Origin: Oscillospiraceae bacterium
GTDB lineage: Bacteria; Bacillota; Clostridia; Oscillospirales; Acutalibacteraceae
Direction of reading: 5' to 3'
Length of the DNA: 64,000 bases
Assembly: GCA_015065645.1 (NCBI GenBank)
Contig: SVPW01000002.1
Location: forward strand, 31,776 to 95,775
Of the stretch, positions 3,223 to 43,456 are shown piece after piece; the stretch's first letter is position 1; each line of letters starts with the position of its first letter. The notes below the pieces were generated by a model, which searched no databases, was not told the DNA's origin, and saw only the letters and a program-made list of their open reading frames with translations. Position numbers and translations under genes: made by a program.

Positions 3223-3399
3223 TTACTCCTGTTCACTGCCGTCATAATTTAAGAAATTAAAATAATCCAAATTTTGCATTTTTTCAATTCTTAACGGCAT
3301 TTTTTGGTACTCCACAGGCGGTTTGGACTTTGCTTTGCCGATAATATATCCGCAAGCAAAGAAAAACACGCCCATAAAAATAAATATAAATTGGCTCAT
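3223..3399 (-). CDS. Small single-pass membrane protein in the phage head module
   Basis: MSQFIFIFMGVFFFACGYIIGKAK is a hydrophobic helix followed by a basic stretch. Its ATG overlaps the terL stop (TAATG), suggesting translational coupling. Confidence 0.4.
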   Translation of the reverse strand: MSQFIFIFMGVFFFACGYIIGKAKSKPPVEYQKMPLRIEKMQNLDYFNFLNYDGSEQE

Positions 3400-11017: not shown

Positions 11018-11028
11018 ATTATGCAGAA

Positions 11029-11145
11029 AACTTCAGGGCGAGGTGCAATTCCTCACCGGTGGTAAAGCCCACGAGCCTTATATATAATTTAAGGTTGATT
11101 CGGTCCAATTCCGAAGCCGACGGTACAGTCCGGATGAAAGAAGTT
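11029..11145 (+). promoter_or_regulatory. FMN riboswitch (RFN element)
   Basis: CUUCAGGGCGAGGUGCAAUUCCUCACCGGUGGUAAAGCCCACGAGCC...GGUUGAUUCGGUCCAAUUCCGAAGCCGACGGUACAGUCCGGAUGAAAGAAG matches the RFN consensus. The P1 helix is AACUUC/GAAGUU. Confidence 0.92.
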
Positions 11146-11177
11146 AAATGCACTTTTAATTTATTTGCATTTTTCAC

Positions 11178-11937: not shown

Positions 11938-11960
11938 ACTTTTTGCAAACCGAATATTTC

Positions 11961-12055
11961 CTTATCAAGAGTGGTGGAGGGAACAGGCCCGTTGAAACCC
12001 GGCAACCTGTCTTTATGACAAGGTGCCAAATCCTGCGGAGAATCCGAAAGATGAG
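11961..12055 (+). promoter_or_regulatory. SAM-I riboswitch (S-box)
   Basis: CUUAUCAAGAGUGGUGGAGGGAACAGGCCCGUUGAAACCCGGCAACC...GGUGCCAAAUCCUGC...AGAUGAG matches the S-box consensus. Confidence 0.92.
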
Positions 12056-12061
12056 GCTTTT

Positions 12062-12135: not shown

Positions 12136-13320
12136 ATGGCAAAAATGCTTTTTACATCCGAATCTGTAAACGAAGGTCATCCCGATAAGGTGAGTGACCA
12201 GGTTTCTGACGCTATTCTTGATGCTATCATAGCCCAAGACCCCAAGGCCCGTGTTGCTTGCGAAACATTCTGCACAACAGGTATTGTTACCGTTATGGGT
12301 GAAATCACCACCACCGCACAGGTAGATATTCCTGCAATCGTACGCGAAGTTCTCTGTGATATAGGCTACAACGGTGCAGATGCCGGATTTGACGGCAACA
12401 CCTGCGCTGTTATGACCGCTATTGACAAGCAGTCCCCCGATATTGCCTTAGGTGTTGACCATTCTATGGAGTTTAAGGGCGGTGAAGAGGATGTTTACAA
12501 TCTTCACGGTGCAGGCGACCAGGGTATGATGTTCGGCTATGCTTGCGATGAAACTGCGGAGCTTATGCCGCTTTCCACCTCTCTTGCACACCACCTTTCA
12601 AAGAGACTTACCGATGTAAGAAAAGACGGCACTCTCCCCTATCTTCGTCCTGACGGAAAAACGCAGGTAACCGTTGAATATAATGACGGTGTGCCCACCC
12701 GTGTTGATGCTGTGGTTGTTTCCAGCCAGCACACTGCAGATGTTGAACTTGAGACCTTGCGTAAGGGCATTTTGGAAGAGGTTATAAAGCCTATTATCCC
12801 TGCAAATTTACTTGATGAAAACACCAAGTTCTATATCAATCCCACAGGCCGCTTTGTTGTAGGCGGACCTCAGGGTGATACAGGTCTTACAGGCAGAAAG
12901 ATAATCGTTGATACCTACGGCGGTATGGCACGCCACGGCGGCGGCGCATTTTCGGGTAAGGACCCCACAAAGGTTGACCGCAGTGCCGCTTATGCCGCAA
13001 GATATGTTGCAAAAAATGTTGTTGCAGCAGGTCTTGCCAAAAAGTGCGAGGTTCAGCTTGCCTATGCAATAGGTGTTGCAAAGCCGGTATCCGTAATGAT
13101 AGATACATTCGGCACAGGTACTGTTTCTGACGAAAAGATAGCTGAGGCTGTTTCAAAGGTATTTGACCTTCGTCCTGCCGCTATTATTGATACTTTACAG
13201 CTTCGCCGCCCAATCTTCCGCAAGACCACAAACTACGGTCATTTTGGTCGTGAGGATGCTGATTTCCGTTGGGAATACACCGATAGAGTAGATGCACTTA
13301 AAGCCGCAGTAAAGGCATAA
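12136..13320 (+). CDS. metK: S-adenosylmethionine synthetase
   Basis: 394 aa with the canonical [14 protein letters not shown]-terminus and [16 protein letters not shown] motif. Confidence 0.97.
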
Positions 13321-14692: not shown

Positions 14693-16117
14693 TTAAAGAT
14701 TATAATACTTATCAAATTCAGCAGGATGCGGAATTGCGGCAAGCTGTCTGCATTCAGCACGCTTTGTCTTAATAAAGTTGCGAATAAGCTCTTCGGGGAA
14801 TACTCCACCCTCAGTAAGATAAGCAAAATCCTTTTCAAGGCAATCAAGAGCTTCATCAAGAGATACAGGAAGACCCTGAAGCTTTGCTTTTTCCTCCTCA
14901 GGAAGATTATAAAGGTTCATATCATAAGGACCCCAACCGTTTGCATGAGGATCTATCTTATTCTTAACACCATCAAGACCTGCCATAAGTATTGCTGCAT
15001 AGCAGAAATAAGGATTGCAGGTAGCATCAGGATTACGAAGCTCAAAACGGCGCTTATCAGGACTCTTTGCATAAGCGGGAATACGGATAACCGCACTTCT
15101 GTTAGAGGTTGCATAGCCCACAGTTACAGGTGCCTCAAAACCGGGAACCAAACGCTTAAATGAATTGGTGCTGGGGTTAGTGATAGCACAAAGAGAACCA
15201 ATATGCTTTAAAAGACCGCCAATGAAATAATGAGCAGTTTCACTAAGGTGTGAATAACCATTATCATCAGAGAATACGGGCTGACCGTCCTTGAAAAGAA
15301 GCATATGCACATGCATACCGCTACCTGCTTCACCATAAATAGGCTTAGGCATAAAGGTTGCACTTTTACCGTATTTAAGAGCAGTATTATGAATAATATA
15401 CTTTATCATCATTGTAGCATCTGCCATGTGAACAACCTCACCAAGCTGAGGCTCAATTTCAAACTGACCCGAAGCCGCAACCTCTGGATGATGATAATTT
15501 ATTTCAATGCCTGCATCCTTCATAAGCATACACATTTCACTACGGCACTCATAAGAGGTATCAAACGGCTTTGCAATATGATAGTTCTTCTGCTTTGCAA
15601 CTACAACACCGTGACCCTCATTACCCGAATTCCAATATGACTGCTTAGCATCAACAGTAGCACCTATGTACTGACCGTCAACATTCCAGGTGACATCATC
15701 AAAAAGATAAAACTCAAACTCAGGCAATATCTTCATTTCATCAGCAACACCGCTGTTTTTCATATATTCAACAGCAGCCTTTATGATGTTACGGGGATAT
15801 TGTGCCAAAGGACGGTTTTCAGGAGTGTCAATTATCATTGCATTACCTGTCATTGAAAGGGTTGGAATATCGCAGAAAGGATCAATCACGGCAGTATCAG
15901 GATCGGGAATAAATACCATATCGCTTTTTTCAACCACTGCATAACCGTAGTTAGAAGCATCAAAACCGATACCGCTTTTCATGGTGTCCTCAGAAAAGTT
16001 TTCTGCAGGAATGGTAACATGACGGTACTGACCGTTAATATCTACCATTTTGAAATCGACCATTTTTATGTCATTTTCTTTAATAAGCTCAAGAATATCG
16101 TGAACAGTTTTTGCCAT
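14693..16117 (-). CDS. glnA: Glutamine synthetase, type I (E. coli-like GSI-beta form)
   Basis: 474 aa, collinear with E. coli GlnA as I remember it (HHPEVA, GSGMHVHM, NSFKRLVPGFEAP, NLYNLPEEE). Confidence 0.9.
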   Translation of the reverse strand: MAKTVHDILELIKENDIKMVDFKMVDINGQYRHVTIPAENFSEDTMKSGIGFDASNYGYAVVEKSDMVFIPDPDTAVIDPFCDIPTLSMTGNAMIIDTPENRPLAQYPRNIIKAAVEYMKNSGVADEMKILPEFEFYLFDDVTWNVDGQYIGATVDAKQSYWNSGNEGHGVVVAKQKNYHIAKPFDTSYECRSEMCMLMKDAGIEINYHHPEVAASGQFEIEPQLGEVVHMADATMMIKYIIHNTALKYGKSATFMPKPIYGEAGSGMHVHMLLFKDGQPVFSDDNGYSHLSETAHYFIGGLLKHIGSLCAITNPSTNSFKRLVPGFEAPVTVGYATSNRSAVIRIPAYAKSPDKRRFELRNPDATCNPYFCYAAILMAGLDGVKNKIDPHANGWGPYDMNLYNLPEEEKAKLQGLPVSLDEALDCLEKDFAYLTEGGVFPEELIRNFIKTKRAECRQLAAIPHPAEFDKYYNL

Positions 16118-16248: not shown

Positions 16249-17148
16249 TCAATCTTTAAAATATTTAAGATTTATCGTAACATCCTCGTTATCAGTTGCA
16301 AGTATCATAATGGGCGAAATACTTGTAAGCCCCTCAACCGTGCCGTCAGCATTTGATATAGCGGTTTGCTGTTTAAAGGATTCATATTCAGTAACCGAAT
16401 TTCCAACCTCAAGCTGTATATCCTTATAAGTAACAGAACATCCCTTTTCAGCCGTTCCGTCTGCAATAGCGTATACAAAAATAACTAAAATACAGTTATC
16501 GTTTGGTTTCTCAGGAATAATTCCTGTCTTTTCTATATAAGAATATTCTTCGTTTGATAATACTTCGGGAGTATTAATAAACGAACCTGCTAATTGATTT
16601 GTTGACTTATCATACCAACCAATACGAAGATTTGCTTTATTGTTAGATGAACACTTCGCCCAACCCGATACCGTAACGGTATCTCCTGCGTTTAAGCCGT
16701 AAAGAGATATAGTTGCAAATCGGTATGTTCCGGCAACAAGATTTTGAGCAACGGTTATTTCATTTTCCGTCACATTCATAATATCCGACTGACCACCCGA
16801 TTTTCCTCCGTTAATATTAAACAGATTTTTCCCGAAACGGCTCACCTTAATTCTCGAAAAATCGCTTACAACATCACTTGTCAAGCTCACATTAAGGTTG
16901 TGTTCGGCAGAGCTGACATCATTAACATGAATTACTTTTCCGCTTGCAGTCGCCTTTTGTGTTTCAGCAGCCGCCTGCCCTGCTTTAAAAACCTTAATGG
17001 TATTTTCCGCAATAGTTCTTATTTTAAAATCAAAAGCGGCAGTATTTATTTCAGCAGGTGTTATATCCTTTATTTTGGATTTTTTCCCCGCTTCAAATAC
17101 CTTAATCTCATTTTCTGCAATTAACACCAATTTTTCCGAAACACTCAT
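16249..17148 (-). CDS. Phage tail-fibre/receptor-binding-type protein with C-terminal jelly-roll (CBM-like) domain
   Basis: The N-terminus carries the duplicated motif IAENEIKVFEAGKK / IAENTIKVFKAGQA. The C-terminus has GWAKCSSNNKANLRIGWYD and IQLEVGNSVTEYE, typical of phage fibre tips. Confidence 0.5.
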   Translation of the reverse strand: MSVSEKLVLIAENEIKVFEAGKKSKIKDITPAEINTAAFDFKIRTIAENTIKVFKAGQAAAETQKATASGKVIHVNDVSSAEHNLNVSLTSDVVSDFSRIKVSRFGKNLFNINGGKSGGQSDIMNVTENEITVAQNLVAGTYRFATISLYGLNAGDTVTVSGWAKCSSNNKANLRIGWYDKSTNQLAGSFINTPEVLSNEEYSYIEKTGIIPEKPNDNCILVIFVYAIADGTAEKGCSVTYKDIQLEVGNSVTEYESFKQQTAISNADGTVEGLTSISPIMILATDNEDVTINLKYFKD

Positions 17149-17972
17149 TCCTCAACACTTCCTATGAGCTGATTTTGAATTTCAATAATTTTATCAAGTG
17201 CCTTTTCAATGCTTTTGTTTGAAATTTCAAGGAAGGTTATATGCAAATATGGTGGATAGGGTGTTATAACCGTTTCTCTAATATCTGTGATAATAAAAGT
17301 ATCATCGGTTTCCGTGTTCAGATATAAATCACCAACATTTGCAGTGGCAAGTTCGTGTGATTTTTCAACAGGTATAGCCATCAACAATCCATACAAATCC
17401 GAATGTTCAACCTCAGTACCTGTAAAAACCTTAACCCCCTTTTTCATCAAAGCCGCACTTGCGGCGGCAGCTAAAGCCGATTCGGTTGCAGAGGCTGCAC
17501 TCTCCTCTGCGTTTCGAGCAGCCTTTTTTGCCGATTGCTCAAGGCTTGTCAGGCTCTCACGGCTTTCATCAAGCTTACCGCTTGCAAACGGCACACCTTT
17601 GAAATAAACACTTACCGGAACGCTTAAAAGCTCCATTTCGGTCTTGCTTTCAGCATTTAACAATGTCACCACCAAAACAATCTTTGCCTCACCGCCTAAG
17701 CGTGTTATATTCTCCCCTAACGGCAGAGTAACTGTTTCCCCTGTAAAGGGGGCAGACTCTGTGCTGTAAAGCGCTCCGCAACTATCAAAGCAATCAAAAC
17801 GGTACTTTAGTTCCTTGCTGTCATCCGCTTGCTGCTGTATCTTTTCAAGTAAAGCCTCTTCAATAGTAAATAAAAGCTGCGTAGCGTTATGCTCGCCCGC
17901 AATACCTGCAAACTGACGGGCATTAGGCGTTACCGCATTTTCATTCACCGTAAATTTAATTTCTCTTATCAT
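17145..17972 (-). CDS. Phage baseplate/tail-fibre-type protein with Ala/Ser-rich coiled coil
   Basis: Start reassigned to the ATG preceded by AAAGGAG (MIREIKFTVNENAV). The central segment SAKKAARNAEESAASATESALAAAASA is fibre-like. The gene overlaps the downstream gene by 4 nt. Confidence 0.45.
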   Translation of the reverse strand: MIREIKFTVNENAVTPNARQFAGIAGEHNATQLLFTIEEALLEKIQQQADDSKELKYRFDCFDSCGALYSTESAPFTGETVTLPLGENITRLGGEAKIVLVVTLLNAESKTEMELLSVPVSVYFKGVPFASGKLDESRESLTSLEQSAKKAARNAEESAASATESALAAAASAALMKKGVKVFTGTEVEHSDLYGLLMAIPVEKSHELATANVGDLYLNTETDDTFIITDIRETVITPYPPYLHITFLEISNKSIEKALDKIIEIQNQLIGSVEE

Positions 17973-18058
17973 ACTTATACTCCTTTTAAAATTTAAAAAT
18001 TCATAACTCAATTAAATAGTTATTTACAAATTAATACCTCCCCCATATACGAAAAACA

Positions 18059-18087
18059 GTTGACATACTTTAACTTATATGCTATTA
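18059..18087 (+). promoter_or_regulatory. Consensus promoter of the XRE gene
   Basis: TTGACA 18059..18064, 17-nt spacer, TATTAT 18082..18087. Confidence 0.6.
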
Positions 18088-18143
18088 TTTATTCGCTTAG
18101 AGTTTATGTTAATCAACTTTATTTCCTATTATAGTTTGAGTTA

Positions 18144-18171
18144 TTCAACTTGTCAACCTTAAAAAGTTGAA
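18144..18171. repeat. Inverted repeat (candidate operator) in the XRE 5' leader
   Basis: TTCAACTT (18144..18151), 12 nt, AAGTTGAA (18164..18171). A further caactt copy lies at about 18113. Confidence 0.6.
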
Positions 18172-18219
18172 CTACATAAACTTTGTTTAGATTACACAAT
18201 ACAGAAACGGAGTATTTAT

Positions 18220-18549
18220 ATGTTTTATGACAGATTTGTTGAAATATGCAAACAGCACAACGTATCACCCTCACAAGTGGCAATAAGATGCGGATTTAAT
18301 AAATCAAGCATTACAAGCTGGAAGAAAAACGGCTATACACCACGACAAGAAATTTTAATAAAAATCGCCGATTATTTTAATGTAACGGTTGATTTTTTGC
18401 TTGGCAACCAACAAAATGAATCTACCGTAATTAGTGATGAAGATATTAAAACCGCATTATTCGGCGGTGATAAGCCTGTAAGTGATGAAATGTGGGATGA
18501 AGTTAAATCCTATGTTGAGTATTTAAAAACCAAATATCAGAATAACTAA
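18220..18549 (+). CDS. XRE-family helix-turn-helix transcriptional regulator
   Basis: N-terminal HTH_3-type sequence (SPSQVAIRCGFNKSSITSWKKNGYTP...KIADYFNVTVDFLLG). Confidence 0.8.
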   Translation: MFYDRFVEICKQHNVSPSQVAIRCGFNKSSITSWKKNGYTPRQEILIKIADYFNVTVDFLLGNQQNESTVISDEDIKTALFGGDKPVSDEMWDEVKSYVEYLKTKYQNN

Positions 18550-18553
18550 AAAA

Positions 18554-18589
18554 ATCCCTTTTGCAATCCATAAAAATTGCAAAAGGGAT
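18554..18589. terminator. Bidirectional terminator between the XRE gene and gatB
   Basis: 14-bp stem atcccttttgcaat / attgcaaaagggat, flanked by A- and T-runs. Confidence 0.8.
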
Positions 18590-18609
18590 TAAATATTTTT
18601 TACTTGAAA

Positions 18610-21232: not shown

Positions 21233-23308
21233 TCACTTTACAAGTCTTGGTACCTGCCAGCTGTCATCGTTGCGTTCGGGAGCGCCAAGGAGCAGGCTTT
21301 CTCTGCTGAAAGGTTGCTTACGAACATCCTCACGAAGCACATTGGTCATAGGCATAACATATATCATCTGTTCAACATTTTCTGTGTTCACATCTTTAAG
21401 AGCAGCTTCATTTTCACCCATCATCTTAAAAATATCCTGCATAACAGCTTCCTCTTCCTCTGTAAGAGAAATCTGATTCAGTTGCTGTGCATTTGAGAAT
21501 GTGGAACGCTTACCCTGTGACTGCTTTGCGGAGCCATTACCTGCCGCACGACCTGCAAGAACACTACCGTTTCCAAGCAGATGAACATCCTCAAGCTGTT
21601 GATTGGAAACTTCACTTGGAGCACCAAGAAGCAGATCCTGTGCATTACCGTTAAGCGGGAATGCAATAACATCAAGTATCTTTTCCTCATCGGTAAGAAG
21701 CATTACCATTCTATCAATGCCGGGAGCCATACCTGCATGAGGTGGAGCACCGTATTGGAATGCTGTATAAAGTGCATTAAAGCGTGATTTAAGCTCTTCT
21801 TCAGAATAGCCTGCAATATCAAACGCCTTTTTCATAATATCTATATCATGGTTACGAACCGCACCCGAAGCCAACTCAATACCATTACATACCAAGTCAT
21901 ATTGGTAAGCCAAAACCTCTGTAGGCTCCTTATTAACAAGTGCATCCATACCACCCTGAGGCATAGAGAAGGGGTTGTGGGTAAAGATTGTATCCCCTGT
22001 TTCCTCGTCAAGCTCATACATCGGGAAATCAACAACAAAGCAGAATTCAAAGGAATCATCACCAATAAGGTCAAGCTGTTCCTTTGCGGCAAGCCAGGTA
22101 CGGATAGCACCCGCTTTTTTCTCGGTATCATTCTTCTTGTCATCACAAATAAAGAAGAGTGTTTCTCCCTCTTTCACACCTGTAATTTCAATTATTTCTG
22201 CTTTTTTGGAATCACTTAAAAACTTAGCAATTGGGCCTATAAACACACCATCTTTAAGGGTGATATAGCCAAGTCCGCCAAGTCCAACCTCAGCAGAGGT
22301 TGCATATTTAAGGGAATCCTCAAAGAATTTGTTTGATTTACCACGGCAATCGGCAACAATTCCACGAACAGGTCTACCCTTAAATGCGGGGAAATTTACA
22401 TCGGCAAAAAAGTCGGTCAAATCACATATAATAAGCGGATTGCGTAAATCGGGCTTATCCGAACCGTATTTCATCATAGCATCAGCATAGGTAATACGGC
22501 GGAAAGGCTTTTCGCTTACCTTTTTATCTGAAAATGTTACAAATGTATCGTGAACAACATCCTCACAAACATCCAAAACCTCTTCCTGTGTTGCAAATGC
22601 CATTTCAAAGTCAAGCTGATAAAATTCACCCGGTGAACGGTCAGCACGGGCATCCTCATCACGGAAACAGGGAGCAACCTGGAAATATCTGTCAAATCCG
22701 GATACCATTAAAAGTTGCTTAAACTGCTGCGGTGCCTGAGGTAAAGCATAAAATTTACCCGGATGCTTACGGCTTGGTACAAGGAAGTCACGTGCGCCCT
22801 CAGGTGAGGAAGCTGTGAGTATTGGGGTTTGCATATCAAGAAAACCCTTATCCTCCATCTTGTTTCTTAAATGACGAATTATCTTTGAACGGATAACAAG
22901 ATTTTCATGGTTTTTGGGATTACGCAGGTCAAGATAGCGGTATTTAAGGCGAAGCTCATCCTTGCTCAACCTTGAAGCTCTTACATCAAACGGGAGCATA
23001 TTTTTGGATTTGCCAAGTACCTCAAGACTATCAACTACAAGCTCAACATAACCTGTTTCAATCTTGGTATTTACAGTTTCAGCGTCACGCTTTTCAACCA
23101 CACCGCTTACCGAAATTACGGTTTCACGGTTCACATTTGCAAGCAGAGATTCATTATGAATAACCACCTGTGTTACGCCTGTGTAGTCACGTAGGTCAAC
23201 AAATATAACGCCACCGTGGTCACGAATAACATCTACCCAGCCTGCAAGCTGAACAGTCTGGCCGATGTGCTTATCACGGATATCGTTACAGAATAGTGTT
23301 CTATACAT
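21233..23308 (-). CDS. aspS: Aspartyl-tRNA synthetase fused to a C-terminal GatC domain
   Basis: Residues 1-578 are bacterial class IIb AspRS. A 34-aa G/S/A/Q linker follows. The last 79 aa carry GatC motifs (LTEEEE, VNTENVE, NVLRED, GAPE, QVPRLV). Confidence 0.85.
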   Translation of the reverse strand: MYRTLFCNDIRDKHIGQTVQLAGWVDVIRDHGGVIFVDLRDYTGVTQVVIHNESLLANVNRETVISVSGVVEKRDAETVNTKIETGYVELVVDSLEVLGKSKNMLPFDVRASRLSKDELRLKYRYLDLRNPKNHENLVIRSKIIRHLRNKMEDKGFLDMQTPILTASSPEGARDFLVPSRKHPGKFYALPQAPQQFKQLLMVSGFDRYFQVAPCFRDEDARADRSPGEFYQLDFEMAFATQEEVLDVCEDVVHDTFVTFSDKKVSEKPFRRITYADAMMKYGSDKPDLRNPLIICDLTDFFADVNFPAFKGRPVRGIVADCRGKSNKFFEDSLKYATSAEVGLGGLGYITLKDGVFIGPIAKFLSDSKKAEIIEITGVKEGETLFFICDDKKNDTEKKAGAIRTWLAAKEQLDLIGDDSFEFCFVVDFPMYELDEETGDTIFTHNPFSMPQGGMDALVNKEPTEVLAYQYDLVCNGIELASGAVRNHDIDIMKKAFDIAGYSEEELKSRFNALYTAFQYGAPPHAGMAPGIDRMVMLLTDEEKILDVIAFPLNGNAQDLLLGAPSEVSNQQLEDVHLLGNGSVLAGRAAGNGSAKQSQGKRSTFSNAQQLNQISLTEEEEAVMQDIFKMMGENEAALKDVNTENVEQMIYVMPMTNVLREDVRKQPFSRESLLLGAPERNDDSWQVPRLVK

Positions 23309-23310
23309 GA

Positions 23311-23551
23311 TACATACCTCCTAATTTTCTCAAAAAAAATAAACGTCCCGGGAATATAAAATATTCCCGGGACGAGTAAAACAAGTTTAACCCGCGGTGC
23401 CACCCGCATTGATACGCATAAGCGTACCCTCTTTTAAATATTAAATTCAAAGTCAACCGTGGAGTGTTCCCAAGCTTACTACTCATCTCAAATGCGCTTT
23501 CAGTCGGTGACGCATTCTCCCTGACAGACTTTCCACAAAAGCCGAGTCTCC
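23311..23551 (-). promoter_or_regulatory. T-box leader of the aspS-gatA-gatB operon
   Basis: T-box sequence AAUGCGGGUGGCACCGCGGG lies at 23410..23391. A 14-bp terminator hairpin at 23374..23344 is followed by a U-run. Stem III-like hairpin and F-box-like ACGGUUG are also present. Confidence 0.85.
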
Positions 23552-23557
23552 ATGCGT

Positions 23558-23586
23558 ATTATAGCAAAATACCGCCGCTTTGTCAA
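23558..23586 (-). promoter_or_regulatory. Consensus sigma-A promoter of the T-box leader
   Basis: On the minus strand: TTGACA (23586..23581), 17-nt spacer, TATAAT (23563..23558). Confidence 0.75.
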
Positions 23587-23705: not shown

Positions 23706-24095
23706 ATGTTTTGCAAAAATTGCGGTGCACAACTTCCTGATGAAACTTTGTTTTGTGTAAGATGCGGTGCGGATTTAATGCAATCAAACCCCTATCATCA
23801 GCAACAGCAGTATCAACAACCACCTTATCAGCAACCCTATCAATAACCTTACACTCCTTCAACACATCAACCTGCACAAGGCTTTGCAATAGCATCACTT
23901 GTTTTGGGTATTGTATCTTTTTTGATTTTTGCAATTATTGCAGGGCCCTTGGCAATCATTTTCGGAGTAGTTGCTAAAAATAAGGGTAACAGAAGCTCTA
24001 TGGCAACCGCAGGTATTATATGCGGAATTATAGGTATTGTGAGCTATTTTATTATGATAATTTTATTACAAAATACTATTTTTGCTCTATTTTAA
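23706..24095 (+). pseudogene. Zinc-ribbon plus DUF4190-type membrane protein interrupted by an in-frame TAA
   Basis: MFCKNCGAQLPDETLFCVRCGADL followed by a Q/P/Y-rich linker. TAA at 23844..23846 lies in the same frame as the downstream TM region (GFAIASLVLGIVSFLIFAIIAGPLAIIFG...). Confidence 0.65.
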
Positions 24096-24107
24096 ATAAC
24101 ACTACAA

Positions 24108-24146
24108 AAACGGGATGTCTAATCATGAAGACATCCCGTTTTTTGT
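24108..24146. terminator. Bidirectional terminator
   Basis: aaacgggatgtct / agacatcccgttt hairpin followed by a T-run. Confidence 0.8.
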
Positions 24147-24159: not shown

Positions 24160-25332
24160 TTAAAATGCACCATCTAATTCCTCTTTTTCAGGTGGGAAAT
24201 AGCTATGCCTTGCACTTTGTACAAATTTAATTTGTTTTTCTCCTTTTACAGCATTAAACAAAGCCATAACGGTTTTTGGCGGACAAACATAATCGCCTAA
24301 ATAGCAATGAATTTGTATGGGACATTTAATATGCATACCTTGTGCTACGGTATCAAAATACCTAAGCCCTTCGGCAAATTTGGGCCGCCATCCCTTTAGA
24401 TAACCCTGTGCTTCGGCATTAAGGTCACAAAACCATGGTTTATAGGCTATAAGCTCGGTTACATCACGGTCATGAGCCGCAACGGTTACAGCCTGCAAAG
24501 CCCCCTGACTTCCACCAACGGATATAATATCCTTTCCGTTCCATTCGGGTAAGGATTTAACATATTTAAGGGCTATAAGATTTCTTATCATCATTCCCCT
24601 GTAATATGTTGTCATATTAGAAGCGTTTTCTTCATCACTAAACCCGTAAAAAGAAAGCTCACTGCCGTATATTTTTTCAAGTTCACTGTCACTCTTATCA
24701 TTCTCAAAGCCGTGTGCATTAAAGCAAGCGCAGATTTTATTTTCATCATATTCATAATATGCTGCATGAATTCCATATCCCAAGAAAGAAATACGGATTG
24801 GATACTTTTCACCGCCCAAAGGAATTGTAATACATCCGCTTGCATTTCTTCCAAAAGGTGTTTTAACCATCACCTCATATTCTCTAAAGCCTTCACGATT
24901 ATCCCTATCCTTTTCCTTTAAACAGACAACCTGCGTTTCAAATTCCGCAACGGTTTTTTCTATCTCTGCCCAATATTCATTAAAATCATCAGGCAAACAA
25001 TCAGAATATGAAAGGGTGAGAACATCAGCTCCGGCAGATGAATCCAATGGATCAAAGCCTTCTATCTCCTTACCGTCACCATCAAGTGCAATACAATTAA
25101 GATGAACAAATCCTGCTCTTTCAAGGTAATATTTAAGTGTTAACGGCTTTTCTGCAGTAATTTTTGCCTTGCCGTTAATTTTTTTGCCATCATCACCCTG
25201 CATTTCCCATTTTACATTTTTACAATCTATATTCTTGCCATCTTCCCTTGCAAAAACAGTAAATATTATCTCCTCACCGCAGGTATATGAAAGTGGATTT
25301 TTATTAGTAAAGCACTTAAAATATTTCGCCAT
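24160..25332 (-). CDS. Acetyl-xylan-esterase/cephalosporin-C-deacetylase-like esterase (CE7-type) with an N-terminal extra domain
   Basis: Nucleophile-elbow motif GGSQGA, with C-terminal SARHSY supplying a candidate catalytic His. No signal peptide. Confidence 0.65.
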   Translation of the reverse strand: MAKYFKCFTNKNPLSYTCGEEIIFTVFAREDGKNIDCKNVKWEMQGDDGKKINGKAKITAEKPLTLKYYLERAGFVHLNCIALDGDGKEIEGFDPLDSSAGADVLTLSYSDCLPDDFNEYWAEIEKTVAEFETQVVCLKEKDRDNREGFREYEVMVKTPFGRNASGCITIPLGGEKYPIRISFLGYGIHAAYYEYDENKICACFNAHGFENDKSDSELEKIYGSELSFYGFSDEENASNMTTYYRGMMIRNLIALKYVKSLPEWNGKDIISVGGSQGALQAVTVAAHDRDVTELIAYKPWFCDLNAEAQGYLKGWRPKFAEGLRYFDTVAQGMHIKCPIQIHCYLGDYVCPPKTVMALFNAVKGEKQIKFVQSARHSYFPPEKEELDGAF

Positions 25333-25375
25333 TTATATCTTCCTTTTCATAAAAATACAGCCTATCAGCTAACCC

Positions 25376-25410
25376 TTACGCATAATTTGGTAATACCAAA
25401 TTATGCGTAA
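25376..25410. repeat. Perfect 17+1+17 palindrome between GH2 and CE7
   Basis: ttacgcataatttggta a taccaaattatgcgtaa. No U-run follows it on the minus strand. Confidence 0.9.
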
Positions 25411-25426
25411 TAATTTTTTCCCTTTA

Positions 25427-30518
<5,092 letters not shown>

Positions 30519-30549
30519 AACTGTGACCCCTCCGATTATATCCACACAC

Positions 30550-32676
30550 TTAAATAATCTTTACTGTTATCTTTCTTTCTGTAAGGCAGTTTTCTCCTAT
30601 ATACAAATCAAATTCGCCCTTTTCAAGTTTAAAACTACCGTCTTTAAGATAAAAACCAAGCTGTTCTTTCCCCAATTCAAACTCAAAATCGGATATTTCA
30701 CCCGGTTCAATCTGCTTTTTCAAATAGCCTTTAAGCTCTTTAAGCGGTCTCATAACGCTTGCAACCTTATCACAAACATATAACTGAACCGTTTCTTTTG
30801 CCGAAAACTCACCAATATTTTTAACGCTTACTTTAAGTTTGAAGCTTTCACCGTTTTCAATATCACTTAAAGATAGCTCTTGCTTTTCGGCTGTGATTTC
30901 ACCGTAAGAAAACTCAGTATAAGTAAGCCCAAATCCAAACGGATACATAGGATTTGCAAGACCATCAATATAACAGGCGGAAAGTGCCCCCTGCCATACA
31001 TCCCCATAATAAGCATTTACCGTTTTACCCGGACGCAAAGCATTATAATAAATCGGGATATGACCCGTTTTTTTAGGGAATGTTACGGAAAGTCTGCCGC
31101 TTGGAGATGTTTTACCGAATAAAATATCGCAAACAGCGTGTGCCGTACATGAACCCGAATGCCATGCATAAAGAATAGCATCAAAATACTGCTCTACATC
31201 CTCTAAAGCAACAGGTCTGCCGTAAAATAAAACTCCCACTACCCTTTTGCCTGTGGCTTTAGCCCTTAAAATAAGCTCTTTTTGTTCTTGTGTTACCGAA
31301 ATATCTGCAAGTGAATGGGCTTCACCGTTCATCTGATTAGTCTCGCCCAAAGCCAAAACTATCGTATCGGCATTACCGCAAATTGAATTGCTGATTCTTT
31401 CTTTTCCCACAGTTTCACAAAAAGCCTCATATAAATTCTGTGTTTCCTCTGCTCTGCCGTCAAGTGTCCAACTTCCTAAAAGACTTCTTCTTTCATTTAC
31501 AAAAGGCCCTATTAAAATAATATTTTTATCTTTTTCAAGCGGCAATGTTTTATTATCATTTTTAAGCAAAACCATACTTTCTGCCGCTAATTTACGGGAA
31601 TTTTGCAGATGCTTTTGCCTATCAAACACGATAGCTTCACAATAAGGATTTTCAAAAAGCCCCTTTGCAAGCTTAACCCTTAAAATTCTTTTTACCGCTT
31701 TATCAATAGTCTGCTCTGCAACCCTTTGCTCTTCAACAAGAGCTTTAAGATTATTTATATATGAGCTTTCCACCATATCCATATCTGTGCCTGCATTTAT
31801 ACACTGCTCAGCACAATCGGCATCGTTCACCGCAGTACCTTGACGAAGCGGCAGCCTCACAGCACCCCAATCCGAAATAACAAATCCCTCAAAGCCCAAA
31901 TGTTCACGCAGAATATCATTCATATAAAATCTGCTTGAACCCACATTTTCACCGTTTATATCATTAAATGATGACATAACCGTTCCAACACCGCTTTTCA
32001 CCGCACTGCGAAAAGCCGGCAAATAATAATTATATAGGCTATAATCGGAAATTTCGGTATGGTGATAATCCCTGCCGGCTTCTGATGCACCATAGCCGAT
32101 AAAATGCTTGGCGCAAGCCACTAATTTGCCCTTTTCAAAATTGCCCTGAAAACCCTTAATCACTGCCTGAGCTATCTTACCTGCAACAAACGGGTCCTCA
32201 CCCGGTGTTTCAATAATTCTTCCCCACCTGGGGTCACGGCATAAATCAAGCATAGGGCTAAAGGTCCAATGAATACCGTCTGAAGAGGCTTCTTCGGCAA
32301 TATCAGAATAACATTCTTCAATAAGCGAGGAATTAAATGAACAGGACTGTGCAAGCGGTATGGGATATACCGTTCTGTGCCCATATATTACATCACGCGC
32401 AAAAACAAGAGGTATTTTATTTGGGCTTTCATTTACCGCCACATGCTGAAATTCATTCAATAATTCACGATTTACAGAAGAATTATCATCATTTCCCGCT
32501 GTAGAAGATGCCGCCAAAATAAGTGAACCCACCTGACCTTTTCTTATCATATCCTTAATATGGTCTATAGTTTTAGGATCGGTTGAAAAACAAATCTGAT
32601 TGAGCTGACCTATTTTTTCATCGAGAGACATCCTGCTTATAATTGTATCTATTAAAGTATCAAACCTTTTAAACAT
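30550..32676 (-). CDS. GH3 beta-glucosidase
   Basis: SLDEKIGQL N-terminus, FVISDWGA nucleophile motif, and a C-terminal Fn3-like domain. No signal peptide. The start is taken at MFKRF. Confidence 0.85.
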   Translation of the reverse strand: MFKRFDTLIDTIISRMSLDEKIGQLNQICFSTDPKTIDHIKDMIRKGQVGSLILAASSTAGNDDNSSVNRELLNEFQHVAVNESPNKIPLVFARDVIYGHRTVYPIPLAQSCSFNSSLIEECYSDIAEEASSDGIHWTFSPMLDLCRDPRWGRIIETPGEDPFVAGKIAQAVIKGFQGNFEKGKLVACAKHFIGYGASEAGRDYHHTEISDYSLYNYYLPAFRSAVKSGVGTVMSSFNDINGENVGSSRFYMNDILREHLGFEGFVISDWGAVRLPLRQGTAVNDADCAEQCINAGTDMDMVESSYINNLKALVEEQRVAEQTIDKAVKRILRVKLAKGLFENPYCEAIVFDRQKHLQNSRKLAAESMVLLKNDNKTLPLEKDKNIILIGPFVNERRSLLGSWTLDGRAEETQNLYEAFCETVGKERISNSICGNADTIVLALGETNQMNGEAHSLADISVTQEQKELILRAKATGKRVVGVLFYGRPVALEDVEQYFDAILYAWHSGSCTAHAVCDILFGKTSPSGRLSVTFPKKTGHIPIYYNALRPGKTVNAYYGDVWQGALSACYIDGLANPMYPFGFGLTYTEFSYGEITAEKQELSLSDIENGESFKLKVSVKNIGEFSAKETVQLYVCDKVASVMRPLKELKGYLKKQIEPGEISDFEFELGKEQLGFYLKDGSFKLEKGEFDLYIGENCLTERKITVKII

Positions 32677-32794
32677 AAGTGCAACCTCTGTTAAAAAATA
32701 TATGTAAAGCAATTTTAAAACTCAAACTGATTTACATATATTCTTTAACATCAGTTAGTGAGACACAAATGTGCCTCACTAACCAAACTAAAAA

Positions 32795-33859
32795 TTATTT
32801 TTGGAATATACGGATATAATCCATGCTGAAACTTTCAGAGAAAGAACCAACAAGCTCTCCCAAAATATCACCCGGTGTACTACCGTTATTATAGGTACCG
32901 TAATAATCAGTTGGTGCAGAAACACCCATTATCATATAGGTGGATTTATGGAAAGCCTCCCATTTTTCGGGATCGGAAGCAATATCCTGCTCAAGATATG
33001 CAACACCATCAAAATAGAATACTATTTTCTGTGCATCCCAATAAAGAGAAATTTCATGGAAAGAATCCGATAAGCTTTCTCCATTGGCTGGGGTTATAGT
33101 ATCACGCTTATCAATAGTGTCACCATGGTTTGTGTGATCGGTATAATTTACCCATGTATGAAGATTGGGAATTATCTGATCTGCGCCGAAGTTTTCAACA
33201 TAGTCAAACTCATTTACGCTGGCACCGTTATCATCAACAGTTCTTGACCAAAGTGTGCTGCAAGCACCGTTTTTGGTTGCAAGCTTTACTCTGGCAGTCA
33301 TAATACCATAGGTAAAGCTCTTTTTTGCATTGATCTTGGTTGCATAATAACCACCGTCGATCTTACCTGTTTTCATAACGAGCAAACCATCTTCAAGATA
33401 GTAGTTGTTACCCTCTTCATTAATTACGGAAACAGTTCCGTCCTGCCAACGTGAAGAATTTTCCACATCTATCCAGGGACCGCCGTATTTTTGACCGCTT
33501 AATACAGAGCCAAGATAATACGAGCTTGTTCTCTCATAATACGGACCCGGATTTGTAGTTTCGGTTACATACCATTTATCGGTATTAAGCTTTTCTGCAT
33601 TAAACTCATCTCCCCATACATAGGAATAGCCGTCAAGCAGATTCTTTTCACCGATATACCTACCCGAAAGCTCAAAGCCTGCGGGAATAAACTTATATTT
33701 TTCTAAAAATGTTATAAATTTGTTTACTGCAAATGCGGTTGCGTAATCGCTTCCCGCTTCGATGTAAAGGTTATCCTCATAAAGGAATATTTTATAGTCG
33801 GAAAGCCCATAAACATCACCCTTTATACCTGTAAGATTTTCCAATGCAGCATTTTTCAA
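32795..33859 (-). CDS. GH16 domain protein, 5'-truncated paralog of the 883-aa GH16 lipoprotein (possibly a pseudogene)
   Basis: Catalytic motif NEFDYVENFG (ExDxxE). There is only a TTG start and no signal peptide. Homology to the paralog continues upstream of that start. Confidence 0.6.
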   Translation of the reverse strand: MKNAALENLTGIKGDVYGLSDYKIFLYEDNLYIEAGSDYATAFAVNKFITFLEKYKFIPAGFELSGRYIGEKNLLDGYSYVWGDEFNAEKLNTDKWYVTETTNPGPYYERTSSYYLGSVLSGQKYGGPWIDVENSSRWQDGTVSVINEEGNNYYLEDGLLVMKTGKIDGGYYATKINAKKSFTYGIMTARVKLATKNGACSTLWSRTVDDNGASVNEFDYVENFGADQIIPNLHTWVNYTDHTNHGDTIDKRDTITPANGESLSDSFHEISLYWDAQKIVFYFDGVAYLEQDIASDPEKWEAFHKSTYMIMGVSAPTDYYGTYNNGSTPGDILGELVGSFSESFSMDYIRIFQK

Positions 33860-33984
33860 AACGCTCTCATCAATATCGGAAATTCCTACAACGATTTTTT
33901 TAGACGATGCTTTTGCTGATGATGAAAGATCTACATCGAAAGATTTTTCGATCGAATCAACAAGCGACTGGGTCGCATGGGCAG

Positions 33985-36243
33985 TTAAAAAGACGCATTT
34001 CCTCCTGCGGATACTGTATAAGTAGCAAGCTCGTTGCCGTTTATGGTAACAGTTTCAATACCAAGCAAATTCTTTCTTAATGCAATAGTATCGGAAGCTG
34101 CAACTGCGTTATCACGGTCGGTATCATAAAGTAATTCATCGGTATTGTTTGCGATTACCTTCTTTATGCGAACAAGGTCTTTTACATTGGTTGAATCGTC
34201 CATAGTAACGTCAAACTTATCAAACCATTTTGCATTGAGTGCGGCATCAGCAGAAACTGATGTTACCTTTTCTTCACCGTTATACCAACCACCGAAGTTG
34301 TGGAGTAATGTACGGGGGAGGCCAACTATAACAGAACCGCTTTCAGCTATTGCTGTAACATCTGTGCTATAGGTGTTATCGGTATACTTAACTGTAACTA
34401 AGCCTAAGGTACCTGCAGGAATTTCTGTTACGGTTACAGATTTAATGTTGAACGAACCCTGACCGTCAAAAGCAAGTCTTAAAGCCTTTGCATATACACC
34501 GTCAATTACACAGGAAATGCTTGCGTTATCTACGGTTTCGCTGTGCTTTTTAGCGGCACAAATATATTGTCCGTTATCCTGTGTTGTGGTATTAACATTA
34601 TAAAGGATTGCAATCTGCGGATGGTATTGCTTATCGTATGTACCGATATTGGTAACATCATACTCAACATTAACTACATACTTTGCAGTGCTGTCAAGAC
34701 CTACATAGTTGTCGTTGCTGTATTCCAAAGAAACAGCAGCACCGCCGGTATATACTGTGCCAGTGTGTACAACATTATTTTCCTTGTCCATAAGAATTCC
34801 ATCAAAGCCCTGAATTGTAACGCCAAGTGCAGAAGAAGCATCGGTAGGAACATCAAGTGTCATAGTTGCCTTTGGTTTTTCGACGGAAATCATATCGGTT
34901 GCAGTAAGGTCAACATTACCTGTCTTTGTCCACGCAGCGGTAATATCAAGAGAGCTAACTACATTTGTGTGCTTAATGCCGTTTGCATCAAACCAACCTT
35001 TAAATTCATAACCTGCCTTTACGGGTGTAGGTAATAAATCGCCGATAAGTGCAATGTCAACAGTCTTAATACCGCTGTTTGTTAATGTTACAGGAACAAC
35101 CTTTGTATACTCTTCAATTGTAACGGAAGAAATTTCAAAGCTACCCTTACCTGTAAGAGCAAGTCTTATAGGATGACCTGTACCGTATTTAGAACCTTCA
35201 AAAGTGGTGGTCAAGGTCTGCTCTGCATTAACTTTTCCAGGTGCAATACGCTGTGCGGCAATTACCTTACTGCCGTTATCCTGGTTCAAATTATAACCAA
35301 TGTTATAAACAATACCTAATTCAGGGTAATCCTCTGTTTTAGTTGCAGGTGTTGCTGTAACCTTATATTTAACTGTAATCTTATATGATTTATTAGAATC
35401 TGCTACTACATAGTTTTCTGCATCATACTTTAACGGTATCATGGTTTTAAGATACATTGTGGTCCAGTGGTTTATCCATGTGTTAGTACCGTCAAACAAG
35501 GTTCCGTTATAAGCATAGGTTGCATTTACATCAACACTCAAAGGAGCAGATGCAGTTGCCGCTGTGAAGTTAGAGTGTGAAGCGTTTGATACGCTGATAG
35601 GCGCAACATTTGTTAAATCAGCAGCCTTTACATCATAAGCATAGCTTGCCTGCTTAATGGTAATCGACTTAATTGTAGCAGCACCGTGACCGCCGAAATG
35701 CAATCTCAAAGGCTGGTTAGCAGTAGGTGTAGTTGTAACAGAAAGTGAATAAGAACCGGTTGCGGCATTCTTGTTTGCGGCAAGCATAAATGTTCCATTA
35801 TCAATAGTGGTATTTGAAGAGTGGTTATTATAACCAAGACCAATCTGCGGAACATAAGTTGTGTCGGTTGTACCAGCGCTTGTTACATCATAAATTACAT
35901 TTATAGCATAGGTAGCACCTTTTTGAAGAATAATAAAATTATCGCTGCTATCCTTCAAAGCGTACATAGCACCGCTGAGCCAAAGCTTATCTGTTTTAAT
36001 GGCATCACCGCTCATAAACAATTTAGCATCGTTATAGATGCTGAAGGTTACAGCCATACTTCCGTCCTCGCCATAGGTTTGGGACATAGAAAGGTTTGTT
36101 TCGTCTGCACCTATGCGAACGGACTTAGTTAAATCAACGGTTATATTGCTGATTGTTGTTGCGGCAGAGGATGTTATTGTTACAGAGCAAAGTGTGGTAA
36201 CAATAAGGCATACTGCCAATACTAAAGAAATAATTTTTTTCAT
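33985..36243 (-). CDS. Secreted multi-module surface protein with a dockerin-like C-terminus
   Basis: Signal peptide; three ~170-aa modules of unassigned type; two Listeria-Bacteroides repeats (GYEFKGWFDANG, FGGWYNGEEK); C-terminal Ca-loop-like DVTMDDSTNVKD and DTDRDNAVAASD. Confidence 0.7.
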   Translation of the reverse strand: MKKIISLVLAVCLIVTTLCSVTITSSAATTISNITVDLTKSVRIGADETNLSMSQTYGEDGSMAVTFSIYNDAKLFMSGDAIKTDKLWLSGAMYALKDSSDNFIILQKGATYAINVIYDVTSAGTTDTTYVPQIGLGYNNHSSNTTIDNGTFMLAANKNAATGSYSLSVTTTPTANQPLRLHFGGHGAATIKSITIKQASYAYDVKAADLTNVAPISVSNASHSNFTAATASAPLSVDVNATYAYNGTLFDGTNTWINHWTTMYLKTMIPLKYDAENYVVADSNKSYKITVKYKVTATPATKTEDYPELGIVYNIGYNLNQDNGSKVIAAQRIAPGKVNAEQTLTTTFEGSKYGTGHPIRLALTGKGSFEISSVTIEEYTKVVPVTLTNSGIKTVDIALIGDLLPTPVKAGYEFKGWFDANGIKHTNVVSSLDITAAWTKTGNVDLTATDMISVEKPKATMTLDVPTDASSALGVTIQGFDGILMDKENNVVHTGTVYTGGAAVSLEYSNDNYVGLDSTAKYVVNVEYDVTNIGTYDKQYHPQIAILYNVNTTTQDNGQYICAAKKHSETVDNASISCVIDGVYAKALRLAFDGQGSFNIKSVTVTEIPAGTLGLVTVKYTDNTYSTDVTAIAESGSVIVGLPRTLLHNFGGWYNGEEKVTSVSADAALNAKWFDKFDVTMDDSTNVKDLVRIKKVIANNTDELLYDTDRDNAVAASDTIALRKNLLGIETVTINGNELATYTVSAGGNASF

Positions 36244-36330
36244 CAGTTTTCCTTCTTTCTAAAATTATTAAAAAGTTGCCGGATGTGTTATTTTTTAGTT
36301 CAAACTCCCCCTTTTAAACCCTTCTTCGTT

Positions 36331-37239
36331 TTAGCCCGTGATACCAACACGGTCAATCGAACGGACAAATTTGCGCTGGAATATCATATACAGAACAAGT
36401 GGTATTACTATGTACATAAGGCAGGCCGCACTAACCAATGTTGAATACTCGGGCCATCCCTTATAAACACCAATTTGTTGCAGATATACAGTTAAGAAAT
36501 TCATCACCATTGAAAGCGGTGCATCTTCTGATAAGAAGCTGAGCGTTGCCAGGTGATACTCATTCCAATGCCACACGAAGGACAGCACCGAAACGGTAAC
36601 AAGCACCACGCTTGATGAAGGAAGAGCTATTTTAAAATAGGTTTTAACAGGTCCTGCACCGTCAATATAAGCTGCATCCTCAAGCTCCTTAGGAAGACCT
36701 ATAAAGAATTGCTGGTAAATAAATATCATCATACCGCTTCTGATTCCAACACCAAACAGTGACGGCAACCAATAAACAAACGGTGTGCTGAATATATGCA
36801 AATTCCTGAAATTCACCGACATTGAAAGGCTGTACATCTGTATAGGTATAAGAAGTGAAAGGATAAGAAGAAATGTAAATATCGGCTTTCCTTTAAACTT
36901 AAAGCGTGCAAAGCCGTAAGCGATAAAGGCACAAACAAAAACCTCTATCAAAGCACTTAAAACCTGTACCAAAAGTGTTTGCTTTAAAGCAGAACCAAAA
37001 TTCATTAGCTCATAAATATCACTGAAGCTTTTAAAGCTGTAGCTTACAGGCACCCATATATGCTCCATATCAAGCAAGGCATTTCTATCCTTAATGGCAG
37101 AAACGAACATATACAGCAGTGGATACAAAACTATGTAGCCCACAATGCACAAAAATGCAATTCTTGCTATTGATGATATAATGGAAGGTATTTTTTGGCG
37201 GACTAAATTGCCGTCAAACCGTACTTTGTTTTTCAGCAT
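36331..37239 (-). CDS. Carbohydrate ABC transporter permease (MalG/LplC-type)
   Basis: 302 aa, 6 TM, EAA-loop region LEDAAYIDGAG. Confidence 0.85.
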   Translation of the reverse strand: MLKNKVRFDGNLVRQKIPSIISSIARIAFLCIVGYIVLYPLLYMFVSAIKDRNALLDMEHIWVPVSYSFKSFSDIYELMNFGSALKQTLLVQVLSALIEVFVCAFIAYGFARFKFKGKPIFTFLLILSLLIPIQMYSLSMSVNFRNLHIFSTPFVYWLPSLFGVGIRSGMMIFIYQQFFIGLPKELEDAAYIDGAGPVKTYFKIALPSSSVVLVTVSVLSFVWHWNEYHLATLSFLSEDAPLSMVMNFLTVYLQQIGVYKGWPEYSTLVSAACLMYIVIPLVLYMIFQRKFVRSIDRVGITG

Positions 37240-37240
37240 A

Positions 37241-40396: not shown

Positions 40397-40410
40397 ATAA
40401 ATTTCCTCCT

Positions 40411-42543: not shown

Positions 42544-42555
42544 ATCATCCGCCCC

Positions 42556-43455: not shown

Positions 43456-43456
43456 A

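Follow-up and report, generated by a model that had tools for sequence, protein, structure and literature searches.

Does this locus encode a single polypeptide that joins a tRNA synthetase to a subunit of the amidotransferase acting after it, and what would such a protein do in the cell? The question is raised by an open reading frame (ORF) on the minus strand (21233..23308) of a 64,000-nucleotide (nt) stretch of an Oscillospiraceae bacterium genome (family Acutalibacteraceae; contig SVPW01000002.1, positions 31,776 to 95,775), hereafter called the window. A preliminary description, made from the sequence alone, had read this ORF as an aspartyl-tRNA synthetase (AspRS) carrying a C-terminal GatC domain, and had suggested that it hard-wires the transamidosome, the complex of AspRS, tRNAAsn and GatCAB. 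We found that this interpretation is right on the identity of the protein and plausible on its function, and that it overstates the rarity of the fusion. It is rather probable, in our judgement, that the locus is a four-part operon for tRNA-dependent Asn formation, which encodes a covalently tethered Asn-transamidosome probably using free ammonia, and that the fusion came about by stop read-through.

The ORF starts with ATG, runs in a single frame and contains zero internal stops. When we compared its 691-residue product with Pfam, four domains were found, namely tRNA_anti-codon (residues 19-98), tRNA-synt_2 (117-553), GAD (338-393) and GatC (PF02686, 615-686). Residues 1-578 are a normal bacterial AspRS, as had been described, since the aspS model NF001750 matched residues 1-577 with 739 bits (cut-off 443) and TIGR00459 gave 608 bits (cut-off 374). 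The tail matched PF02686 over profile positions 1-66 of 66 with 36.6 bits (cut-off 23; E=5e-9). The TIGR00135 gatC model gave 49.1 bits with the tail alone and 44.6 bits with the whole protein (cut-off 47.1), residues 603-690 falling on model positions 5-92 of 93 (4/5-92 overall). In addition, the tail aligned end to end with the Aquifex GatC in the PDB (3h0l_C, E=1e-6) and with the S. aureus GatC (2df4_C), and the domain is 55% identical to P0126, a free-standing GatC of 93 amino acids. These Pfam, NCBIfam and PDB matches confirm the described architecture, and the tail is a genuine, complete GatC domain. A linker of 34 amino acids had been placed between the two modules; a variable linker is indeed present at about residues 579-599, but the last 14 of the 34 residues (KRSTFSNAQQLNQ) form the conserved first helix of GatC, since free-standing GatCs align with them and they hardly vary among the orthologues. 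A search of the six-frame translation of the whole window with the GatC hidden Markov model returned no further match, which bears out the statement that the window holds no free-standing gatC. AlphaFold2 models built on shallow alignments were of low confidence (predicted local distance difference test, pLDDT, 51 for the GatA-like protein and 46 for the full fusion), and we drew no conclusions from them.

Features of the window, with positions counted from its first nucleotide
Feature	Position	Strand	Basis or remark
Phage terminase large subunit	3399..4703	-	Terminase_3 and Terminase_3C
BspA-type leucine-rich-repeat protein	5157..6890	-	C-terminal dockerin I match
Flavin mononucleotide (FMN) riboswitch	11025..11149	+	117 bits; ahead of a gene of energy-coupling factor (ECF) transporter type
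S-adenosylmethionine (SAM) riboswitch	11959..12057	+	87.5 bits; ahead of metK (12136..13320)
Bidirectional intrinsic terminator closing the operon	18553..18590	.	Hairpin of 15-17 pairs, T-runs on both strands
gatB, 474 amino acids	18610..20034	-	NF004012, GatB_N and GatB_Yqey; canonical kinase/transamidase subunit with YqeY tail
gatA-like gene, 394 amino acids	20038..21222	-	PF01425; amidase-signature fold, about 70 N-terminal residues missing
Stop codon of aspS::gatC	21233..21235	-	
GatC domain, residues 600-691	21236..21511	-	PF02686, TIGR00135 and PDB matches
Variable Gly/Ser/Ala-rich linker, residues 579-599, about 21 amino acids	21512..21574	-	Orthologue alignment
AspRS module, residues 1-578	21575..23308	-	Oligonucleotide-binding (OB) anticodon-binding domain, class II catalytic core, GAD insertion; bacterial type
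T-box leader	23333..23553	-	RF00230 match in E-value mode and comparative analysis
Terminator hairpin of the T-box leader, with U-run	23344..23374	-	
T-box sequence AAUGCGGGUGGCACCGCGGG	23391..23410	-	Motif with UGGN bulge
Stem I of the T-box leader	23459..23553	-	Consensus fold
Specifier codon AAC (Asn), purine next	23466..23468	-	Stem I consensus
Sigma-70 promoter, TTGACA-17 nt-TATAAT, extended TG	23558..23586	-	12/12 consensus matches
Strong hairpin, 15 pairs, flanked by T and A runs	24106..24143		Between a small membrane-protein ORF (23904..24095, +) and the esterase gene
Long same-strand carbohydrate-utilisation cluster	24160..57883	-	

In order to follow the fusion in related genomes, we scanned one genome per GTDB species, which gave 576 with a related GatC, and the best 80 were examined at the locus level. 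These belong to Acutalibacteraceae, Candidatus Fimenecus, Ructibacterium and Fumia, and their record titles name mostly goat, cattle and deer gut samples. On contigs of sufficient length, GatC lies inside an open frame of AspRS length, and about 65 of the 67 complete species-level loci hold one open frame of about 691 codons. The 120 best clusters of the protein database (clustered at 90% identity; 87-100% identical to the window protein) all contain the AspRS and GatC parts with the four Pfam domains and measure 690-741 amino acids, all but one of them 690-693. The identical protein also occurs on three contigs of different sources. A sequencing or assembly artefact, in which a missed stop or a frameshift joins two ordinary genes, finds nothing in its favour here; only 2 of the 80 loci are interrupted (L050 and L079), as expected of occasional errors in metagenome-assembled genomes. 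Because the identical protein stands on three contigs, and because more than 120 clusters and about 65 independent species genomes keep the single frame, an artefact is excluded for practical purposes.

The three parts of the protein differ in how strongly they are conserved. Across 66 complete orthologues (689-693 amino acids), mean identity was 90% for the AspRS module and 51% for the linker, which also shows insertions and deletions. The ratio of nonsynonymous to synonymous divergence (dN/dS) was about 0.05 for AspRS, 0.34 for the linker and 0.10 for GatC, at a synonymous divergence that is saturated among the orthologues (dS of about 1.7). The GatC part is therefore under purifying selection, which also speaks against a missed stop or frameshift. 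The weak conservation of the linker bears on another possibility, namely that the linker is cut after translation and releases an ordinary AspRS and a free GatC, so that no tethered complex would be present in the cell. To our knowledge, polyprotein processing of housekeeping enzymes is unusual in bacteria, and the aligned linkers of the 66 orthologues show no conserved cleavage motif. The linker is nevertheless exposed, variable and rich in Gly, Ser and Ala, and a GatC-GatA fusion mutant of M. smegmatis gave a minor band (<10% of the GatA signal) near the unfused size, which is maybe non-fused or degraded protein (PMC7541841). Taken together, we regard such cleavage as very improbable.

The fused gene heads an operon whose order, aspS::gatC, gatA-like (393-394 amino acids) and gatB, is kept in about 75 loci. 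The close packing that had been described was found: the preferred ATG of gatA-like, at 21222, lies 10 nt past the aspS::gatC stop and is preceded by a GAGGTG Shine-Dalgarno sequence, and gatB starts 3 nt beyond the gatA-like stop, which places the GatC domain next to genes of the gatA and gatB type. The gatB product is canonical. For the GatB family (NF004012/TIGR00133), it scored 569 bits with NF004012 (cut-off 338), with 373 bits for GatB_N and 123 bits for GatB_Yqey; the GLETHVEL and HMEEDAGK motifs are visible in its translation, and its dN/dS is about 0.06.

The gatA-like product is of a different nature, and this feature, which alters the likely chemistry, was absent from the preliminary description. 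Its amidase-signature fold is supported by PF01425 (185.9 bits, profile positions 52-445) and by its best PDB sequence matches, all of which are GatA chains. With the GatA equivalog TIGR00132, it reached 270 bits against a cut-off of 481, the alignment beginning at model position 60. When we aligned it with S. aureus and Aquifex GatA, and with the canonical GatA of a more distant locus (L083), the catalytic Lys79 (AVKDN) was replaced by Asp, the GGSSGGS motif carrying the cis-Ser was deleted, and the positions of Arg358 and Asp425 were occupied by Val and Ser; the numbering of these Lys, Arg and Asp residues is, we assume, that of Nakamura et al. 2006. In 77 of 79 orthologues, Asp stands at the Lys position, and the other 2 have Glu there. 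The position of the GatA nucleophile, Ser178 (PMC2330236), is still Ser in the window protein, while the 79 orthologues have Ala in 44, Ser in 31, Thr in 3 and Gly in 1. Neither the complete Ser-cisSer-Lys triad nor the glutamine-binding residues of a glutaminase are thus present in the GatA-like protein. The gene is nonetheless intact in all orthologues and constrained (dN/dS of about 0.12), and judging from these substitutions its product appears to be a conserved pseudo-glutaminase. NCBI names it either 'hypothetical protein' or 'amidase family protein', and no description of such a dead GatA was found in the literature searched, the coverage of which is incomplete. The dead GatA occurs in loci L002-L082, L086 and L088, in fused and unfused relatives alike, and is therefore older than the fusion and independent of it. 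As a separate observation, a type I glutamine synthetase gene lies at 14693..16117(-), on the strand of gatB and about 2.5 kb downstream of it, with the terminator and three small genes in between; it is probably unrelated to the operon, and of note given the glutaminase-less GatA.

The operon is preceded by a leader that was likewise absent from the preliminary description. In E-value mode, RF00230 (T-box) matched with 40.4 bits (E=2.6e-7 in a 951-nt search); at the Rfam gathering thresholds, zero T-box matches were returned for the window or for seven related loci. We then compared 68 orthologous leaders, of which 66 contain the GGGUGGCACCGCG motif and most conserve the TATAAT of the promoter. 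The Stem I consensus, folded from 22 diverse sequences, has 25 pairs, 16 of them with compensatory changes, and CUCGUCCCG, the 3' partner of AAUGCGGGUGGCACCGCGGG, overlaps the terminator stem, as the T-box arrangement demands. The 3' side of the specifier loop reads N-AAC-R directly 5' of the basal helix, with AAC invariant, A or G next and G, C or U before it. Since N-AAC-R occupies the canonical specifier position and presents its codon with a purine next, the specifier is AAC (Asn). Three other codons were considered and rejected: CAC (His) would have U as its next base and calls for a C73 discriminator, which is at odds with UGGC; in GAA (Glu), the G is not conserved; and GAC (Asp) sits in the apical loop. 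The discriminator base that fits the UGGC bulge is G73, which is that of tRNAAsn and rules out tRNAHis. From the AAC specifier and the UGGC bulge together, it follows that the operon should be induced by uncharged tRNAAsn, and T-box control thus appears to tie the operon to Asn-tRNAAsn synthesis.

The same leader bears on the possibility that GatC, GatA-like and GatB no longer serve as an amidotransferase but were recruited elsewhere, for example for sequestering or proofreading Asp-tRNAAsn or for regulation, with Asn-tRNAAsn made by an AsnRS encoded elsewhere. An Asn-specifier T-box is the logic expected of a pathway that charges tRNAAsn, and GatB is fully canonical and strongly constrained, both of which argue against such a recruitment. 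In its favour are the loss of all glutaminase residues, the public annotation of the GatA-like protein as 'hypothetical' or 'amidase family', and the fact that gene content is known here from the window rather than genome-wide; among the 30 largest other ORFs of the window, we found no asnS, asnA/B, second aspS, glnS, canonical gatCAB or tRNAAsn. The loss of the glutaminase site need not abolish amidation, as amidotransferases can use NH4Cl in vitro (PMC4027206). We therefore give a non-amidotransferase role hardly any weight, slightly less even than cleavage of the linker.

For the tethered transamidosome, we suggest the following course of events. Uncharged tRNAAsn would pair with the leader at the AAC specifier and at the UGGC bulge, the terminator would not form, and the operon would be switched on. 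The first product would be a bacterial-type AspRS bearing a complete C-terminal GatC on a variable linker of about 21 residues; the AspRS is predicted to be non-discriminating, in view of the Asn-specifier T-box and the fused or adjacent amidotransferase genes. GatC is needed for GatA folding and for GatA-GatB assembly (PMC2330236), and would here be the belt that enables GatA to fold and holds it to GatB. With GatC as this belt, each subunit of the AspRS dimer should permanently carry one GatA-like/GatB module, and the whole would form an Asn-transamidosome with covalent tethers and a 2:2:2 stoichiometry. Once AspRS had loaded tRNAAsn with Asp, the acceptor end would pass to GatB, and GatB would phosphorylate and amidate the product to Asn-tRNAAsn, so that the mischarged intermediate would never be released, much as the known transamidosome channels it (PMC2330236). 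Both the physical assembly of the complex and the channelling are inferred here. The GatA-like protein would most likely serve as scaffold and tunnel only. Because its glutaminase residues are lost and it is yet conserved, the amide nitrogen probably comes from free ammonia, which is abundant in the ruminant gut. Amidotransferases in which the glutaminase is bypassed accept NH4Cl in vitro, and a GatC-like subunit can bear an additional N-terminal domain (PMC4027206). A bolder version, which we offer tentatively and with much less confidence, is that this ruminant-gut Clostridia clade runs a hard-wired, glutamine-independent Asn-tRNAAsn machine with a dead GatA scaffold and free ammonia. It might then be the first natural ammonia-dependent tRNA-dependent amidotransferase, a single-particle 'AsnRS in cis' dedicated to asparagine by its T-box.

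How the fusion arose can be approached through unfused relatives. The nearest free-standing GatCs have 93 amino acids and are 48-55% identical to the domain. They are encoded in two close relatives, L082 and L086, which have the order aspS, gatC, gatA-like, gatB with the same dead GatA, and in L086 (790..1170) aspS and gatC are in-frame, separated by a 45-nt spacer and a single TGA with no other stop. The linker of the fused proteins matches this spacer in length. A single substitution, or read-through of the TGA, would therefore give a fusion with a linker of the observed length in L086, and we propose that the fusion may have arisen by read-through of the aspS stop codon into the neighbouring gatC.

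The implied rarity of the fusion was not supported, since we found it in at least 80 GTDB species of this lineage and in a second Clostridia lineage. In a more distant relative (P0141/L088), the linker of the fusion is unrelated and the GatA is dead as well. The second lineage, which is partly high-GC and carries names including Aristaeellaceae, Eubacteriales and Lachnospiraceae, comprises about 90 clusters of AspRS-GatC fusions. The one locus of it that was examined, L083, has its own T-box motif and a normal GatA of 491 amino acids in which the triad is complete; mechanistically, the fusion is therefore not tied to the dead GatA. Based on these observations, the AspRS-GatC architecture is recurrent, as well as already catalogued, and the dead GatA is a separate trait of the wider clade of the window. 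The fused gene of L083 (4750..6825) contains one in-frame stop in its GAD-domain region (HENG*VNSIL), which splits the gene calls and could be a sequencing error, a pseudogene or recoding. For this reason a supposed truncated family of 270-280 amino acids, encoded on long contigs and consisting of the AspRS C-terminus and GatC, was discarded: the L083 fragment results from the in-frame stop inside a full-length fused gene. Similarly, P0359, which has Amidase and tRNA-synt_2 Pfam matches, is not an AspRS-GatC-GatA triple fusion but a frameshifted gene call. In L084 the aspS-gatC call is split, and gatB is split as well, as far as the gene calls show. An exhaustive search of cluster representatives with the GatC tail yielded nothing but fragments and free-standing GatCs; AspRS clusters presumably stand in for the full-length fusions, and this search is therefore no measure of how widely the fusion has spread.

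The ease with which such a fusion could form supports the main competing explanation, according to which a non-discriminating AspRS and GatC were joined by stop loss and form the same complex as in the unfused relatives, the tether bringing no kinetic or fidelity gain beyond equal expression and persisting because it is harmless. L086 shows that aspS and gatC need be only one TGA apart, in-frame, for fusions to arise easily; in L082 and L086 the same gatA-like and gatB genes work with an unfused aspS and gatC; and the linker is poorly conserved. However, the frame has stayed open in about 65 of the 67 complete species-level loci despite the high synonymous divergence, and no fewer than two other groups (P0141/L088 and the L083/P0316 lineage) carry fusions whose linkers are unrelated. 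The open frame at saturated dS and the unrelated linkers argue for recurrent retention over drift, though neither is proof of an advantage. We consider a harmless tether somewhat doubtful, and linker cleavage or a lost amidotransferase function less likely again.

Several points nevertheless weigh against the tethered, ammonia-using transamidosome. First, relatives are a single point mutation short of the fusion, which could therefore be close to neutral. Second, in L083 it stands alongside a normal GatA. Third, the T-box match lies under the Rfam gathering score (40 versus 93 bits). Fourth, ammonia use is suggested solely by the loss of the glutaminase residues, the charging of tRNAAsn by this AspRS is supported by inference rather than by direct evidence, and it is an assumption that a tether of 21 residues can connect the C-terminus of AspRS with the N-terminus of GatC while the transamidosome remains productive. 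Finally, a housekeeping aspS, asnS, asnA/asnB, glnS or canonical gatCAB outside the window would change the physiological role of the operon.

Comparison with known systems showed that the architecture already has a name. NF009460 (PRK12820), 'bifunctional aspartyl-tRNA synthetase/aspartyl/glutamyl-tRNA amidotransferase subunit C', has the same order of AspRS and then GatC in one polypeptide of about 700-720 amino acids, and residues 5-667 of the window protein align with model positions 24-696 of 723. The window protein does not belong to this family, as it scored 460 bits against a cut-off of 1379, and the fused protein of L083 also fails, with 622 bits. Since both fall under the cut-off, NF009460 represents yet another lineage with the same architecture. 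The authors of the preliminary description had known of no characterised AspRS-GatC fusion, and had allowed that it might turn out to be described and common. It is common and it is named in a database, but we found no paper characterising a natural AspRS-GatC fusion, and no biochemical paper on fusions of the NF009460, window or L083 type, in the literature searched, the coverage of which is incomplete.

The closest functional counterpart suggested here is a system assembled without covalent links. The non-covalent Asn-transamidosome of T. thermophilus, H. pylori and P. aeruginosa has the same components and the presumed path, in which AspRS mischarges tRNAAsn, GatB amidates it and the complex keeps Asp-tRNAAsn from being released (PMC2330236; PMC3367201). 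It is held together by tRNA and protein contacts and has a free GatC of about 95 amino acids, whereas in the window GatC is covalently attached to the AspRS C-terminus and its GatA partner lacks a glutaminase site. A fused GatC also has a precedent in M. smegmatis, where stop loss between adjacent amidotransferase genes gave a viable fused polypeptide (PMC7541841). That mutant was selected in the laboratory, joins the GatC C-terminus to GatA, has lower fidelity and is absent from about 500 natural gatCAB loci (PMC7541841), while the window fusion is natural, conserved and made through the GatC N-terminus. In yeast mitochondrial GatFAB, GatF is a GatC-like belt with an extra N-terminal domain, which shows that GatC can be lengthened at this end while GatA and GatB still assemble, and with its glutaminase bypassed the enzyme can also use NH4Cl (PMC4027206). 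In GatF, the additional part is a small domain packed on GatA that supports the glutaminase, whereas the window extension is a whole 578-residue synthetase on a flexible linker. A synthetase with a C-terminal amidotransferase piece is also found in Deinococcus radiodurans, whose GlnRS carries a YqeY/GatB-like appendage (PMC1865053); this appendage binds tRNA for an enzyme of the direct pathway. The appendage in the window is, by contrast, an assembly subunit of the indirect pathway.

As for regulation, the NT-box operon of Clostridium acetobutylicum, which Saad et al. are said to have reported in JBC in 2012 and in PNAS in 2013, reportedly contains an additional aspS with separate gatC, gatA and gatB and a normal GatA, and its specifier loop is said to read two overlapping codons (GAA/AAC). 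In the clade of the window, only AAC is conserved and the preceding base varies. The NT-box operon, also from Clostridia, likewise places the tRNA-dependent synthesis of Asn and Asn-tRNAAsn under T-box control. The NT-box acts on an operon and not on a single gene (PMC4574755), and the extra AspRS enzymes and additional GatCAB of this species have been connected with T-box regulation and with tRNA-dependent formation of Asn (PMC4206432).

The transamidosome is a textbook case of channelling that guards the genetic code from a deliberately mischarged tRNA, and it has so far been studied as a transient, tRNA-dependent complex. A natural and conserved covalent version would offer a stable particle for structural work, and a comparison of fused with split forms would directly gauge the share of tethering in fidelity. 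The fusion is also independent 'Rosetta-stone' evidence that bacterial-type AspRS and GatCAB cooperate in vivo in Clostridia. From the conserved pseudo-GatA, it would seem that the glutaminase half is dispensable in ammonia-rich habitats, which bears on the persistence of the indirect pathway and on the nitrogen economy of gut anaerobes. Current annotation hides this pathway, as GatC lies inside an 'aspartate--tRNA ligase' and the GatA-like protein goes under 'hypothetical'; in automated metabolic reconstructions, these organisms would therefore be wrongly taken to lack GatCAB.

The remaining part of the window contains several further features. Directly past the gatB terminator (16249..18549), there are two ORFs of 299 and 288 amino acids without Pfam matches and a small helix-turn-helix gene, which are also present on the identical contig L001. 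These ORFs, the helix-turn-helix gene and the terminase gene are possible prophage or mobile remnants. The genes beside the two riboswitches are identified by the Pfam labels of L001. The dockerin match suggests that the BspA-type protein may be a cellulosome-associated surface protein. On the other side of the operon, the hairpin at the edge of the carbohydrate-utilisation cluster is probably a bidirectional terminator, and weak small-RNA matches there in the E-value mode of Rfam were dismissed as spurious, drawn by the hairpin. The cluster itself includes an acetyl-xylan esterase, a glycoside hydrolase family 2 (GH2) beta-galactosidase, a GH3 protein, two GH16-domain proteins and DUF5696. 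It also contains ATP-binding cassette (ABC) sugar permeases, binding proteins, one of which has 964 amino acids and a carbohydrate-binding module (CBM35), a 1612-amino-acid protein with Listeria-Bacteroides repeats, and several 750-amino-acid ORFs with no Pfam match.

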